A DNA stretch of 55,500 bases, filler included, from Catajapyx aquilonaris (taxonomy: Eukaryota): NCBI GenBank assembly GCA_000934665.2. It is 2 parts of 2 records of this genome, joined end to end, with 100 filler letters (N's around TTAATTAATTAA, not from the genome) between each part and the next. Parts side by side here need not be neighbours in the genome. Positions count along the whole stretch, not along the records: positions 1 to 27,713 come from JYFJ02005017.1; 1 more part is not named here. The stretch is one strand, 5' to 3'. The number at the start of each line of letters is the position of its first letter. Position 1 is the first letter of the stretch. The position numbers were made by a program, and so were the translations under genes. Below are positions 1,333 through 7,517 of the stretch, piece after piece. The notes below the pieces were generated by a model. That model was not told the origin of the DNA, did no database searches, and was given only the letters and a program-made list of their open reading frames with translations.

Positions 1333-2089
1333 ACTTAAAGGTTCATCCAATCACAAAAACTATCTATTAAAGAAGCACATTTTTTTGCTCTTAAAATCTA
1401 GTTGTACCATACTACAGTACCATACTTTCTTATATTGTATATACGTAAAAACTTTATTATTCAGTAAAACATCTAACACACAATGCGTGTAATTTCAAGA
1501 TTCTCTATATATGTTAATCATCCTCCTTAACCTAAAACGTAGAGGCTTAAAATTTTATAGCTTCTCTTTCCAGATTCTAAAATCGAATTAGGTAATTTGG
1601 CTCAGTGTGGTTTGGTTAAGATTAGTTTGGTATATTAGGGAAGCCGAGAAATAGTTTTTTGAACGGGACTTGGTAGGAAACGGAAGAACGGCCGAGTTTA
1701 GTCAACCTGAGACTGTAAGTACAGCATAATATGCTATTTATCTGTGAGGAAATGTAACTCTGAAAATCTCGTGTACAGAAGAGAGACGAGTTGGTGCTAG
1801 GCTACCATGTCTGTCATTCAGAGTTGTAAGCCTACCCAACAATACTCATTTACGGCATTTACGTAAGCGTCTCGAGGCGTCTGCACCCTTGACGTCCACG
1901 CAGACTATTGCGAAATATGGCAGGGAATTTAAAACGACAAAATTGCGTCAAGTTAATTGCTGCTGCACGTGGTATCCTTGGAAATGTAAGAATATGAAAT
2001 AAATGAGGCCTCAAAATTTCAAGTGGATGACCTTTCCTGCCCTGTGCATTTAATTGCGACGTTTAGGCTCAAAATTGCCCAGATGTGTG

Positions 2090-5000
2090 ATGGCCGAGCT
2101 TTGCGAAGCCAAATGTGCAAGGGGTGAAATTAGGTTGCACAAAAATGGACCCAAAAGTGAATCATCTAGTCAAAAGAGAGGAAAGCTAGTCGAAACAAAG
2201 GTTAGTGAGCACAGCAAGAGAGTGAATCACCCTGTATTTAAAGTACCTAACAAGATTAATTAATTTTTGGTGCAGATATCCGAAGATTTAATTCGCGATG
2301 AAGCCATCAGCTTAGAATCCGGCCACAAGCCCAATCCCGATGAACAACTAAAAGCCATGAAGGAAGTACCACATCAGTGGGACAATCTGTTAGACTTCGT
2401 AGATTCCTTGCCACACATACGTACGCCCACGCGTACGCCCAAGATCCGCCGTTCACCACGTGATAGCGCAACACATGTTGATTTCACCCAATTCGCCAAC
2501 AAAAAGCCTCAGGACAGTGGCAGTCTGTCTCCAGCAAAGTCTCCAAACATGAAAGAACAAAAGGCTAAGTAAAACAATATTATAGGGCTATAATCTATAA
2601 GTATATACAACTGCTTCTGTACTCGGTGTTAATGACCCATTATATCTGACCCTCATCAGCAATTACAAAGTGAGGATAACGACGGCAAAGGAAGCTGACC
2701 AAGTGGGTAAGCGTGAAATCATTCCTTCAAGGGATGAGGAAAACATCAAGAAGCGTGCAACAGGAGCTGATTTCACACAACTCGCCAACATTAGGCCTCA
2801 GGACAGTGGCAGTCGGCCTCCAAAGTCTCCAGACATGAAAGAACAGACGGCTAAGTAAAACAATATAGGGTTATAATCTATAAGTATGCTGCTTCTGCAC
2901 TATGTGTTAATATCTGACCCTCATCAGCAGTTCCAAAGTGAGGATTATGACGACAAAGGAAGCTGACCAAGTGAATAAGCGTGAAATCATTCCCTCAAGG
3001 GATGAGGAAAACATCAAGAAGCATGCAACAGGAGCAACGAGAAATTTGAAGGCAACACTCAATTACAAGATGATTTCTGCAGATGTGAGCTATTTCCGTA
3101 GATTATATACCAGTAATAATATTAATACTAACGTACAATATCCTGTTGTCCTGTTTTATTCGAAGCCATTTCTGCGATTTTCCCATTTCCGGTTCGGTGT
3201 CTTTTTACCTGCAAAGCCAAAAAAAGTATATTGCATCATTACGTTCCACAGGAAAATCAACAGTCGGCAGGTGAAGAGGAGGAAAAACTCACAACAAATG
3301 CGTATGCCTGTACTTGTAAGGCACCATGTCTGTGTGACAGTCAGTATAAGGAGAAAGTGATAAATGATTCGGCTGCACAACTTTTTCCATCAAAAAACAC
3401 GAAGGTAATTTCTGCGATTTTCCCATTTTCTGTTCAGTTTCTGTATATCTGCAAAGCCAAAGAAGTATAGCCAGAATTCCATCCTGCCGGCAGCGGCAGG
3501 AGCTTATGCACGGGGAGGATAGGCCGTAACATTAAACTTGTCAAAAGTCGGTAAAGTAAATATTTCTTGCTGAATTTTAAAAAAGGCCCATCTAGATAAT
3601 AATGTTAAGAAGGTAATGGCGCATGTTGCACATAAATACGCTGAGCGATACGTGATATATATCTCGCCCACTATCTTATGGGCATCCATTCTGGACAGAT
3701 TCACTCAGGGTGGAATTATAATTTTTATACAGTGAACGGAAGGTCGCAATGGAATTAAATTTAAAGGCCCATCGAGATATTTATATTATAAAGGGTCTCC
3801 AATAATTAGAATTACAAAATCTTTTTCCGTTAATGAGATTTTTCTCGCCGAAGATATTATAAAGCGGGTTGGTAGCATGTTGACCGAGTTCCGTTCTTGG
3901 CCACACTCTTCTCTTACGGGATATGCGTGGCGTTGCAGTCGCCGGTTGGCCGTAGTAACGGCGTTTGGCTCGTTACCGGTCCAGGGACACATGCAACAAT
4001 GGCATTTTGACAATGATTTTACGACTATACTAATAGTACAGCAAAGAAACAAAAGGTGAGAAATTCCCTGGCCACAGGCCACTGGAAGGAAGCATTGGAC
4101 ATGAGAAATTCTTCTGGAAGTTGGAAACGCACGGCTTATGGAAAGGGGCAACTGGGCTCTGGTCTATCCTGAGTCCTTACTGATGAAAAGACTGATATAG
4201 GGCTGTACCGGTAGGGTGGCATGTGGAGGGGGGGGGGGGNGGGGGGGGGGGGCGACAGGTTTGGAAGCCTTTCCCGACCTGAGGCCAAAATGAACCAAAG
4301 GTATATATGAGCCTTTTAGCCGTGACGTATTTGTTTGCCTTTTTTTTTCGCGGCGGCCATGTTGGTTGGGCAGAACCAGCAATGGCGGCATGCTGATGGG
4401 TTATTTCCGCAACAATATCTCGAGTAAGTAAGCCACACCAGGCTTTTTTTCGGTTCCAAATTGATGTGGAGGGGAGGGCCAGATTGTTGGCCGCCGTCAG
4501 GAGAGTGGAGAAGGTCGAGAAAAGTTGGTAACCCACCAAACATCGACGGATTTGCGGAGCTCACACTTTGCACAAAGTAACCATTTCCGGTGTTTATTTC
4601 CCTGCTGGAAGTTGCAGTGTGACTAATTAACCCTGGCGAACCTCACACACCGGCACAAACACTGCCAGCAACACGAGTTGAAGCGAGCCATTTACCGCGA
4701 GAGTATCGTATCGAGTATCGTATCGCTTCGTCTCTGTGTTTCTCCCGTAGTAAGACTTTTCGCGTAGTGCGGCAGTGGTTCCAAAGGGCGGGCCATGTCG
4801 GGGAGCCCCGCAGGTAGGCCACGGGCCAACCACGGGCCACAGCAGAGCTCATAAACCCCGGCAGACCTCAAAAACCCTGCCAACAACACGGGTGGGATAG
4901 GGGTTTTACCCAACCAACATGGCGGCCGCCTTTGTTGTGATGACGTAGCGTTAAAAGGCTCATAGGATTAGGTCTTTCAAGCAGTTACGGACAAGGCCGT

Positions 5001-5862
5001 TTTGGCGCTAGTTTCATGACAAAATTGACAAGAGTATTCCAGGTTGCCTATTACAAAAAGGTAAGGGAATCCTGGCTACTTGCATCATTACGTTCCACAG
5101 GGAAATCAACAGTCGGCAGGTGAAGAGGAGGAAAAACTCCCAACAAATGCGTATGCCTGTACTTGTAAGGCACCATGTCTGTGTGACAGTCAGTATAAGG
5201 AGAAAGTGATGAATGATTCGGCTGCACAACTTTTTCCATCAAAAAACACGAAGGTAATTTCTGCGATTTTCCCATTTTCTGTTCAGTTTCTGTATATCTG
5301 CAAAGCCAAAGAAGTATATTGCATCATTACGTTCCACAGGCAAATCAACAGTCGGCAGGTGAAGAGGTGGAAAAACTCCCAATATACGAGTATGTCTGTA
5401 CTTTTAAGGCACCATGTCTGTGTGACAGTCAGTACAAGAAGAAAGTGATGAATGATTCGGCTACACAACTTTTTCCATCAAAAAACACGAAGGTAATTTC
5501 TGCGATTTTCCCATTTTCTGTTCAGTTTCTGTATATCTGCAAAGCCAAAGAAGTACAGTATATTGCATCATTACGTTCCACAGGCAAATCAACAGTCGCC
5601 AGGTGAAGAGGTGGAAAAACTCCCAACATACGAGTATGTCTGTACTTTTAAGGCACCATGTCTGTGTGACAGGCAGTACAAGAAGAAAGTGATGAATGAT
5701 TCGGCTACACAACATTTTGCACCAAAAATCACGAAGGTCATAGACAGTTCATCAACTCGCTCGTCGGAGACGAAATTCTATTCTGTGATTAGCATGACTC
5801 CACCTGAAGAGGAGAACTACGAGTCTGCACTGACGTCTTCAGAGGATATGAGGACCGTTTAG
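2090..5862 (+). CDS. Predicted 8-exon gene for an uncharacterised ~497-aa hydrophilic protein with two Ser/Pro/Lys-rich repeats and four 51-aa Cys-containing repeats (YxCT[C/F]KAPCLCD)
   Basis: Exons 2090-2200, 2276-2568, 2660-2854, 2928-3084, 3252-3404, 5101-5253, 5340-5492, 5584-5862. All introns are GT..AG with compatible phases (0,2,2,0,0,0,0). Total 1494 nt with no internal stop; AATAAA near 6043. The true start could lie in a further upstream exon (acceptor at 2065-2066). No homology recognised. Confidence 0.68.
2468..3036 (+). repeat. Two-copy tandem duplication (~270-290 bp) spanning exon end, intron and exon start
   Basis: TGATTTCAC..CGCCAAC..CCTCAGGACAGTGGCAGTC..GGCTAAgtaaaacaat..ctgaccctcatcag..GCAACAGGAGC occurs twice, with GCAACA microhomology at the junctions. 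Confidence 0.9.
3468..5078. mobile_element. 1.6-kb non-autonomous DNA transposon with TAGCCAG termini (Academ-like ends, tentative) inserted in an intron
   Basis: 13-bp TIRs TAGCCAGAATTCC / GGAATCCTGGCTA. It splits the intron motif GAAGTA|TATTGCATC that is intact in the neighbouring repeat units. The TSD is ambiguous (possibly TA). Confidence 0.8.
4309..4961 (+). mobile_element. Nested non-autonomous element with an AT target duplication and a decayed THAP domain (ISL2EU/Harbinger-group-like)
   Basis: Imperfect inverted ends GAGCCTTTT..GACGT..GCGGCCATGTTGGTTGGG and its complement at ~4908-4961, flanked by AT on both sides. 4382-4570 translates with stops and frameshifts as MAAC*WV..NN..FFRFQIDVEGRARLLAAVRRVEKVEKSW*PTKHRRICGAH, a THAP zinc-finger pattern. 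Confidence 0.78.
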
Positions 5863-7302
5863 AGTAAAAAGAAATGCACATGCACCGAGATATGACCCCA
5901 AGAAGGAAAGTACATATCGGAAAGTGAAGGGAGTAGTAATAAGTGCCCTAACTTATTGCAAATCTTTTAAAAATATGATAAAACAGAAAGGGACAGGTGA
6001 TAACACATATAGCGTCATGGTTTGTACAGCAGATCAACAGAGAAATAAATAAAAAAAATAAGCAAAACGTTGCATGACATCGTGTGGTGTCACTCTTATC
6101 GCTTACGAGTAATTAATGCGACTTTGTTGCCTATTTGGAACAGAAAAATCTTATTCACATTGTTGCAGGTTGTATCCTACATTGGCTCTGCTTGCAAGCA
6201 AGAGCACATGACTCTGTTTTGGTCAAACCTACGCGTATATGCGTAACTCATATGCAAAACAGTTATACGAGCAGTAATAAGGTAATCAGCATGAATTAAG
6301 TTATTACCGTACGAAGGGTGGGAATAATGGTTGGGAGAAGAGTAGCCAAATAACTAAATAAGGAATATCCGGACGACCCTGACCATCAGCAGAATTCTCA
6401 CAGTGAAGTCAGGCATCCGTGTCCGTACACAATTTGTTACAGGGAAGTTTCATAATCTCACGTGCTCTGCCAACTGACGGATGCCATACTGTAGGTGCTG
6501 AATAGTTAGGGTTTTGTAGCTTCGCGGCTACTAAAACATTCTCTTCTCTTGTAGTGACATCTTGTGCCGAGTTCACTGGAGTACTGTCTGTAAGTCGTAT
6601 GTGGCTTTCCTCTGCCTCTCTCACTTGTCAGTCAATAGGCTTGCATTTATTGAAATGGTTAAGACCTTGAAAACAGGTTTATTTTATGCGATGCAGAATT
6701 CTTTCAATGCAGCTGGAAACATGTTTTTATACATCACCCCTAATTGCCGTAAATGTAAGAACTGTAAATGTAAAATGTAAGAATGTAACCTCACATAAAT
6801 CGCACAGATTTCATACACTTTAACCCCCTTCCTATTAGGGTGTTCAAATCATATAACGTCCGTAACGCGGACAGTAACCCGACTTGTTTCTCTCATATAC
6901 ATCATGCATAAGGTTGTTTCCTCAAATATACGGACGTTTAGATCCTTATTTCTCCCCTTCACAAGATAATAATATATTGGCAGGATAAAAGTGGCACATG
7001 ATGGACGAGTAGTTTTATTGACTCACTGCACCAATTAACTAATAATAATTATAGCCTAAGAATATTGCATGAAGGATATTGTCGAACAAAAAAAGATCTC
7101 AAATAATTTAGAAAGATGTGACAATATATGATATATCACTGACATTATGCAAGTGCAACCACACACAAAGAAAAAAAGTGAGTAGGCTGATTAATTTTGG
7201 GCGTCCAACTGAAAAAAACCATTAATTTTATCTGACAAACTTACCTTAATTAGTAGCCTGACTAACTAGGCCCAGTCAGCTGACCAGGATAGGGTAGTGT
7301 TA

Positions 7303-7433
7303 GGCCCGATTTCTCGAACAGTGGTTCAAATGTAAACCCGGTTCAAGTCAGGGTTAAACCCAGTTCAGCGTCTCTGAACTAGGTTTAAACCGGACTTGAC
7401 CTGGGTTTACATTTGAACCACTGTTCGAGAAAT
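7303..7433. mobile_element. Palindromic (fold-back) MITE, possibly PIF/Harbinger-derived
   Basis: ~60-bp inverted arms ATTTCTCGAACAGTGGTTCAAATGTAAACCC...AGTTCAG around a 5-nt loop (CGTCT), with about 5 mismatches. The left end is preceded by TTA|GGCCCG; the outermost right-end bases are not matched. Confidence 0.75.
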
Positions 7434-7517
7434 GAGGGGTGTGGTGGAAAAACATGATAACTGACATTTAATTTAACCTGTTCCCCAGCAGGCAGCACTG
7501 CTTGGATGCAAACAACG

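Follow-up and report, generated by a model that had tools for sequence, protein, structure and literature searches.

Recent intron gains that are well documented and still show a recognisable source sequence are few (PMC4974935). [quoted passage not shown] Here, a comparable arrangement was analyzed in a stretch of DNA of 55,500 nucleotides (nt) from Catajapyx aquilonaris (assembly GCA_000934665.2). The whole stretch is referred to below as the window, and its positions 1 to 27,713 come from record JYFJ02005017.1. The arrangement is a tandem array in the last exon of a predicted gene. The initial annotation had taken it for an intron gain in progress, in which duplication of an intron end together with the start of the next exon placed new splice donors inside the last exon. 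Taken as a whole, this reading was partly supported, at the DNA level.

The AGGT tandem-duplication model provides a second point of reference, and Hellsten and colleagues reportedly gave vertebrate ATP2A1 as an example of it in 2011. Gao and Lynch, whose 2009 work is known to us through citing descriptions, are said to have described internal gene duplications that create or copy introns. As far as these accounts go, the present locus resembles both. As in ATP2A1 and the AGGT model, the tandem duplication would supply the splice sites in one step, with a coding AG/GT becoming the donor (here and below, a slash marks a splice boundary or a join). As in the "imprecise" type of that model, coding sequence would be added; many cases are said to be imprecise and to use latent sites. 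As in the cases ascribed to Gao and Lynch, a latent splice site would be activated inside the segment copied by an internal partial-gene duplication. In the strict Rogers version of the AGGT model, an entirely exonic segment is duplicated and both sites come from the two copies of AGGT; here, 86 of the 239 nt of the repeat unit are intronic. The strict version does not describe the locus because the acceptor is the CACAG of the parental intron.

Four head-to-tail copies of a unit of about 239 nt span positions 3166-5741 on the plus strand. The unit consists of the last 86 nt of a proposed intron and the 153 nt of the exon that follows, i.e., it spans an intron-exon boundary (~3166-3404 for the first copy). 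Tandem Repeats Finder reported an array at 5080-5738 with a period of 239, 2.7 copies, 94% matches and a score of 1162. Two repeat families traced all four units. Family D1 (239 nt) has copies starting at 3231, 5080, 5319 and 5563, with 100, 99, 94 and 71% identity to the first copy; the last value is low because this copy extends beyond the right limit of the array. Family D2, a 57-nt intron piece, has copies starting at 3168, 3408, 5257 and 5496, of which copies 2-4 are mutually identical and share 86% identity with the first. The array is interrupted by an insertion of 1609 nt. When the region was compared with the whole window by blastn, homology ended at 3168 on the left and at 5741 on the right, and no further unit copy was found in the window. 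Outside these limits, local alignment of the flanks was at shuffle level: among 500 shuffles, 96% and 28% reached the observed scores. The parental intron might have held a fifth, decayed unit and the tail of the last exon some remains of intron; both ideas were considered and, on these alignments, dropped. Thus, the repeat was confirmed, and it lies far above chance. In the proposed gene model, it is made up of the following features:

3085-3251, plus strand: parental intron I1, 167 nt, phase 0, GAT/GTGAGC ... TTCCACAG/G; 3166-3251 is the intronic part of the unit
3252-3404, plus strand: unit exon U1, 153 nt, 51 codons
3405-5100, plus strand: putative new intron copy I2, AAG/GTAATT ... CACAG/G, 1696 nt (87 nt without the insertion)
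3470-5078, no strand assigned: composite transposon in I2, 1609 nt, with terminal inverted repeats of the TAGCCAGAATTCC type that agree at 12 of 13 nt
5101-5253, plus strand: unit exon U2, three differences from U1
5254-5339, plus strand: putative new intron copy I3, 86 nt, phase 0
5340-5492, plus strand: unit exon U3, hybrid-looking, first U4-like and then U1/U2-like
5493-5583, plus strand: putative new intron copy I4, 91 nt, equal to I3 plus a 5-nt insertion
5584-5862, plus strand: proposed terminal coding exon, with U4 at 5584-5736, a unique 41-codon tail at 5737-5859 and TAG at 5860-5862
5737-5741, plus strand: GTCAT, in-frame counterpart (Val-Ile codons) of the GTAAT donor and right limit of the unit
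6044-6049, plus strand: AATAAA, 182 nt past the stop, the sole A[AT]TAAA in the 638 nt after it

The initial annotation had proposed symmetric 153-nt exons and phase-0 introns of 86-91 nt when uninterrupted. Its coordinates fit the sequence, with exons of 153 nt each at 3252-3404, 5101-5253 and 5340-5492 and phase-0 GT...AG introns at 3405-5100, 5254-5339 and 5493-5583.

All three internal junctions read ACGAAG/GTAATTTCTGCG. Each corresponds to the CGAAGGTCAT of the terminal frame joined to the (C)CAT/TTCTGCG of the parental intron, with one C/A difference (3 of 3 junctions). The parental intron reads ...TCGAAGCCAT/TTCTGCG and the terminal frame ...ACGAAGGTCAT/AGACAG, and the right limit of the unit lies 5 nt beyond the in-frame AAG/GT of the frame that reaches the stop. 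The strings first quoted for the two parents were found at their places (TCGAAGCCATTTCTGCG at 3160-3176, ACGAAGGTCATAGACAG at 5731-5747), as was the chimeric string ACGAAGGTAATTTCTGCG at all three junctions (3399, 5248 and 5487). In the simplest derivation, the two parents would have been joined at their common CAT with help from the CGAAG that precedes it in both, leaving a single C/A difference. Joining them at the CGAAG instead would require two substitutions and one insertion. At the acceptor end, the final 27 nt including CACAG/G are identical in four of four intron copies, and outside them the parental piece differs at 10 of 58 positions (Fisher P 0.027).

A C-to-A change had been proposed to have given the donor. 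The junction is indeed explained by the CAT microhomology and a single C/A difference, but the direction of the change is undecidable, because GTC and GTA both encode Val and because the three junctions trace to one founding junction, i.e., to two lineages with no outgroup. An ancestral GTAAT that later became GTCAT in the terminal copy would be equally parsimonious. With GTAAT as the ancestral state, a single step would have produced the intron, its donor being available from the start, and a silent change would later have cost the terminal copy its donor look.

The GTAAT found at all three junctions aligns with the in-frame GTCAT (Val-Ile), whose status as exon rests on the 41-codon frame and the AATAAA. 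Nine donors in neighbouring OATP paralogues, inferred from where paralogue similarity stops, have A at +3 in 9/9 and G at +5 in 2/9. By this pattern, GTAATT is ordinary for this genome, whereas GTCATA, with C at +3 (0/9), is not. The latter bears on a different history of the array, namely an ordinary exon duplication. An ancestral intron would already have followed the AAG, with GTAAT or GTCAT as its donor, both break points would have been intronic and no intron position would have been gained; the terminal tail would be former intron, read through after the last donor had decayed. Symmetric phase-0 exons of 153 nt are a classic substrate for such events, the undecidable C/A direction suits this history too, and a second frame of the tail comes close in score to the proposed one (6.9 vs 4.1). 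However, the homology that the junction introns share with what follows the last unit is limited to 5 nt (GTMAT). Beyond them, the alignment score of 15, compared with a shuffle mean of 13.9, was reached by 28% of shuffles. Moreover, the frame continues for 41 codons to a stop followed by the sole AATAAA 182 nt later, and by eye no convincing further exon was seen between the stop and the next gene, the first of the OATP genes, at ~9.86 kb. Ordinary exon duplication was consequently regarded as improbable.

The intron gain proposed instead shares several traits with the potato RdRp gene, as far as the passages on that gene describe it (PMC4974935). In both, the duplication crosses an intron-exon boundary, and the new intron, putative in the present case, combines a short ex-exonic stretch from the upstream copy with an intronic stretch from the downstream copy. 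Exonic sequence supplies the donor, GTAAG in potato and, as predicted, GTAAT here. The branch site, the pyrimidine tract, the 3' site and the contrast in guanine-plus-cytosine (GC) content between exon and intron are inherited. The two cases differ in that four units with three putative new introns are present here, in the last exon of an orphan animal gene, that exonic sequence would contribute just 5 nt to the new intron and that a 1.6-kb transposon entered later. They also differ in the type of evidence: splicing and outgroup state were shown for potato, and the present case is described from DNA sequence. The proposed mechanism matches the published one and is, hence, not new.

The gene model is our own and unverified; it was built by joining open frames at GT-AG sites with fitting phases. 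It comprises eight exons and 497 codons, the sole stop being at the end of the joined frame (5860-5862), and its introns measure, in order, 75, 91, 73, 167, 1696, 86 and 91 nt. The last four introns (I1-I4) are of phase 0 and share the ending ...TTCCACAG/G. Upstream of the array, the model contains the following features:

2090-2200, plus strand: proposed exon 1, with ATG at 2090; the true start is uncertain
2276-2568, plus strand: proposed exon 2, the last ~100 nt of which are the first copy of an upstream duplication
2569-2659, plus strand: intron a, 91 nt, phase 2, TAA/GTAAAACA ... CATCAG
2660-2854, plus strand: proposed exon 3, from our own gene model
2855-2927, plus strand: intron a', 73 nt, a duplicate of intron a with three indels of 3, 5 and 10 nt
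2928-3084, plus strand: proposed exon 4, from our own gene model

The unit exon would encode 51 residues with a small Cys cluster and the tail 41 residues. Retention of I1, I2, I3 or I4 would lead to an early stop after codon 343, 324, 418 or 442, respectively, and the frame of the model stays open when U2 or U1-U3 are skipped. The 86-nt intron I3 is itself free of stops in the frame of the preceding exon (28 codons) and in that of the following exon; its retention would still shift the frame, 86 not being divisible by 3. A gene on the opposite strand was also considered and was dropped, as only short hydrophobic open frames were found there, although the codon statistic does not rule against it.

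On balance, it is somewhat more likely than not that the duplication-made introns are spliced, in a gene specific to this animal lineage. The pattern of change between copies points to this. When the array and the upstream duplication were taken together (aligned lengths approximate), 7/7 frame-breaking indels between copies fell in the ~349 nt of aligned proposed intron and 0 in the ~651 nt of exon (P ~6e-4). Three of them separate introns a and a', two separate I1 from the new introns, and the remaining two are the 5-nt insertion and the transposon; the only exon indel is of 3 nt. Thus, the exon and intron labels fit how the copies changed. In size, the new introns (86-91 nt) match the other introns of the gene (75, 91, 73 and 167 nt), and their GC content is 36%, compared with 41-45% in the exons.

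Among the sequencing runs listed for 5080-6100, no RNA run was found; four were DNA runs of a single sample and study, and a further run with the same species label contained almost none of the words of this region. Several observations weigh against splicing and translation. No purifying selection on residues is seen in the units: nonsynonymous and synonymous differences stand at 14:2 between U2 and U4 and at 16:2 between U1 and U4, and the ratio of nonsynonymous to synonymous differences per site (pN/pS) is 1.1-2.0 between units. A ratio of 14:2 is compatible with neutrality (P 0.34), and omega = 0.2 is rejected (P 4e-4). A codon statistic trained on the OATP genes was negative for 4/4 unit exons. 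It favoured the proposed frame over the other two sense frames only, and antisense frames scored equally well or better in two of the four units. The gene model is partly circular because it was built by keeping the frame open, and open frames of at least 110 codons are common in the window (52 listed). In addition, I1 contains a textbook TACTAAC (3126), followed by a pyrimidine-rich run of 22 nt and an AG (3164-3165) whose position coincides with the left limit of the array. As a competing acceptor, this AG is credible; if it were used, 86 nt would be added and the frame shifted, with a stop after codon 316 (frame end at 3358).

Searches for relatives weigh on the same side. With phmmer, the terminal exon (92 amino acids) gave 0 matches against 1.84 billion representatives, and a word search with exon 2 against longer proteins likewise gave 0 matches. 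A metagenome scan returned 142 pattern matches, of which 0 were confirmed. None of the six exon translations reached the Pfam cut-off (TAF1C_C, 18 bits vs a cut-off of 22.5), and the ESM Atlas gave only unnamed clusters at 0.90-0.91 with low recognition. "Orphan" is nevertheless a weak statement, because a 220-amino-acid OATP exon (Pfam E 1.5e-16) was also unmatched at 1e-10 in the same word search; the collection seems thin for relatives of this animal. The search of the whole window against Rfam gave 0 matches.

Such observations would fit a real array whose copied GTAATT donors find no productive use. The locus would then not be a functional protein-coding gene, being instead untranslated sequence or a transcript that is decaying or was never translated, or exon 4 would be joined to a single acceptor, with the other units as silent passengers or decoys. 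A pN/pS of ~1-2 in every comparison fits neutrality, no homologue or family was found in the searches above, the unit exons score negatively and chance open frames are common in the window; with the acceptor at 3165, the array would be untranslated. On the other hand, 7/7 frame-breaking indels lie outside the proposed exons, and 9-12% divergence has left the frame of the last unit and tail open. Over 27 nt, the nearest acceptor (3251) does not differ from the later ones, which means that skipping all three upstream units would need a reason, and the donor and the intron sizes are ordinary for this genome. Unused donors were therefore judged a serious but rather unlikely explanation.

The relationships among the copies suggest how the array grew. 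The parental intron piece and the new introns differ at 10 of 85 positions plus two indel columns (75/85 matches), and the two ancestral exon types differ at 14/153. The founding divergence is thus alike in exon (14/153) and intron (10/85; P 0.51). There are 19 variable positions in the 153-nt unit exons (variable-site table), and the exons differ among copies at 7-11 of 153 positions. U3 carries the U4 state at sites 2, 29, 46-65 and 96-124 (nine variable sites), the U1/U2 state at sites 16, 90 and 131-146, and a state of its own at 44; of the seven U3-U4 differences, four fall in the last 23 nt (P 0.012). I2, I3 and I4 show 0 substitutions over 86 nt and differ only by the 5-nt insertion and the transposon.

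The best explanation of this pattern is the creation of a single intron in the distant past, followed by the recent propagation of two more through unequal crossing-over. In the proposed sequence of events, a tandem duplication would have copied the segment from ~3166, inside the last intron, to 5741, 5 nt past the in-frame AAG/GT of the last exon of a single-unit ancestor without an intron at this AAG/GT. The join would have used a short similarity (CGAAG..CAT) found at both break points. The upstream exon copy would then have ended in AAG/GTAAT and abutted a copy of the last 86 nt of the parental intron. This copy would have brought along the parental branch region, the pyrimidines and the CACAG acceptor, resulting in one new phase-0 intron and a 51-codon in-frame cassette exon, provided that the gene is translated and the GTAATT donors are spliced to the acceptor of the next copy. 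The two-unit array (I1-Ua-Ix-Ub) would have persisted until 9-12% divergence had been reached. An unequal crossover in the exon, between positions 124 and 131, would have generated the hybrid U3 and a second copy of Ix. A further crossover, within the 27 nt over which I1 and Ix do not differ, would have duplicated Ua (U2 from U1) and yielded a third Ix. As the last steps, the 1.6-kb transposon would have entered one new intron and a 5-nt insertion another.

This order of events modifies the initial annotation in two respects. It had spoken of three new introns, where the pattern corresponds to one creation and two recent propagations, and of a gain in progress, where the founding duplication is old (9-12% divergence); "in progress" thus applies at most to the expansion. 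Selection for intron identity or positive selection on the exons had been considered for the contrast between intron (0/86) and exon differences (11/153; P 0.009), and was replaced by the hybrid U3 and the crossover in intron ends. The zero substitutions in introns beside differing exons are accounted for because U3 is a hybrid and one crossover fell in the identical intron ends. After these crossovers, ~3 exon changes per pair vs 0 intron changes are left to explain (P 0.55).

The transposon has TA at its left flank and TAC at its right, and it enlarged I2 from 87 to 1696 nt. Since I2 minus the transposon equals I3, its entry would postdate the expansion. It contains a nested high-copy element with 28-nt inverted repeats at 4350-4377 and 4902-4929, and the word depth of contigs was in the thousands across 4329-5013. 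Contig joints from 4302/4307 to 4962 indicate that copies without the nested part exist.

Read-derived contigs also allow the assembly itself to be examined. Over 2000-6100, contigs from four DNA runs, representing at most two samples, were compared (26 of 520 pieces). They reproduced 2000-3283 (one other letter) as well as 5003-5132, 5103-5254 and 5684-6100 (0 other letters); this agreement is not independent because it probably comes from the assembly's own sample. An alternative reading is that the array, or its copy number, arose in assembly, for instance through tandem stitching of alleles or dispersed paralogues. Order and number of the units do rest on the assembly, because short contigs cannot bridge identical 86-nt introns; one contig carries a variant of U3 (5383 T>C, 5429 T>G) found in neither U3 nor U4 as assembled, and runs of G with N occur in the window. 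In contrast, besides the reproduced stretches, the units differ in an orderly mosaic, and an artefact was considered very improbable. No contig joint skipped a unit or the whole transposon; the three joints observed all lie inside the transposon, the identical introns being unbridged. No polymorphism was seen among these contigs, which have no bearing on expression or copy-number variation. A contig from run X2 (5289-5469) matched U3 and its upstream intron but agreed with U4 at 5383 and 5429, although not at 5355. It may represent a U3 allele or an additional unit that the assembly lacks.

A second internal tandem duplication lies upstream in the same gene model, at 2468-2756 and 2757-3035 on the plus strand (2 x about 286 nt, ~84% identical; blastn, 83.7% over 300 nt; repeat families D3, D5, D7 and D9). 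Its break points are both in proposed exons, and GCAACA occurs at both limits and at the junction of the duplication (2468-3035). A whole phase-2 intron of 73-91 nt was copied together with flanking exon pieces. The exon parts of the copies differ by one 3-nt indel, the intron copies a and a' by indels of 3, 5 and 10 nt. Among described cases, this resembles the internal duplications of Arabidopsis TOUCH3 (Knowles & McLysaght 2006, as described in PMC4974935), in that a whole intron is copied with exon on both sides. According to that description, TOUCH3 represents the propagation of an existing intron; it is comparable to a/a' and not to the array at 3166-5741.

The gene that carries the array lies on the plus strand upstream of three tandem OATP/SLCO-like genes at about 9.86-22 kb (Pfam PF03137, E 1.5e-16 to 2.6e-6). 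The OATP paralogues carry a Kazal-like Cys motif, and conservation at +4 to +6 is weak in the donors inferred for them. In the spacer that separates the orphan gene from the first OATP gene, an inverted repeat, long and near-perfect, was seen by eye at 7300-7440; it is hairpin-forming and resembles a miniature inverted-repeat transposable element. Long runs of G occur on the plus strand at 938-957, 1250-1278, 4221-4253 and ~13.4 kb, some of which contain an N, while GGCGTGAG comes directly after some. They may belong to a repeat family or mark trouble spots of the assembly.

As a sequence-based example of a published mechanism, the locus leaves the knowledge of intron gain unchanged. It may, as a tentative reading, keep the early life of an intron: birth in one step from a duplication across the boundary, multiplication by unequal crossing-over into near-identical mini-introns between symmetric 51-codon cassette exons, and growth of one copy from 87 to 1696 nt by a transposon, all within a fast-evolving orphan gene (pN/pS of at least 1) with another intron-copying duplication upstream. 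The exon end and the intron end from which the new intron would derive still adjoin it, and it is present in several copies. If the donors are used, any donor could pair with any later acceptor, and proteins of one to four modules would be possible. The array may thus offer a natural test bed for whether GTAAT or GTCAT decides splicing and for how identical mini-introns pair.

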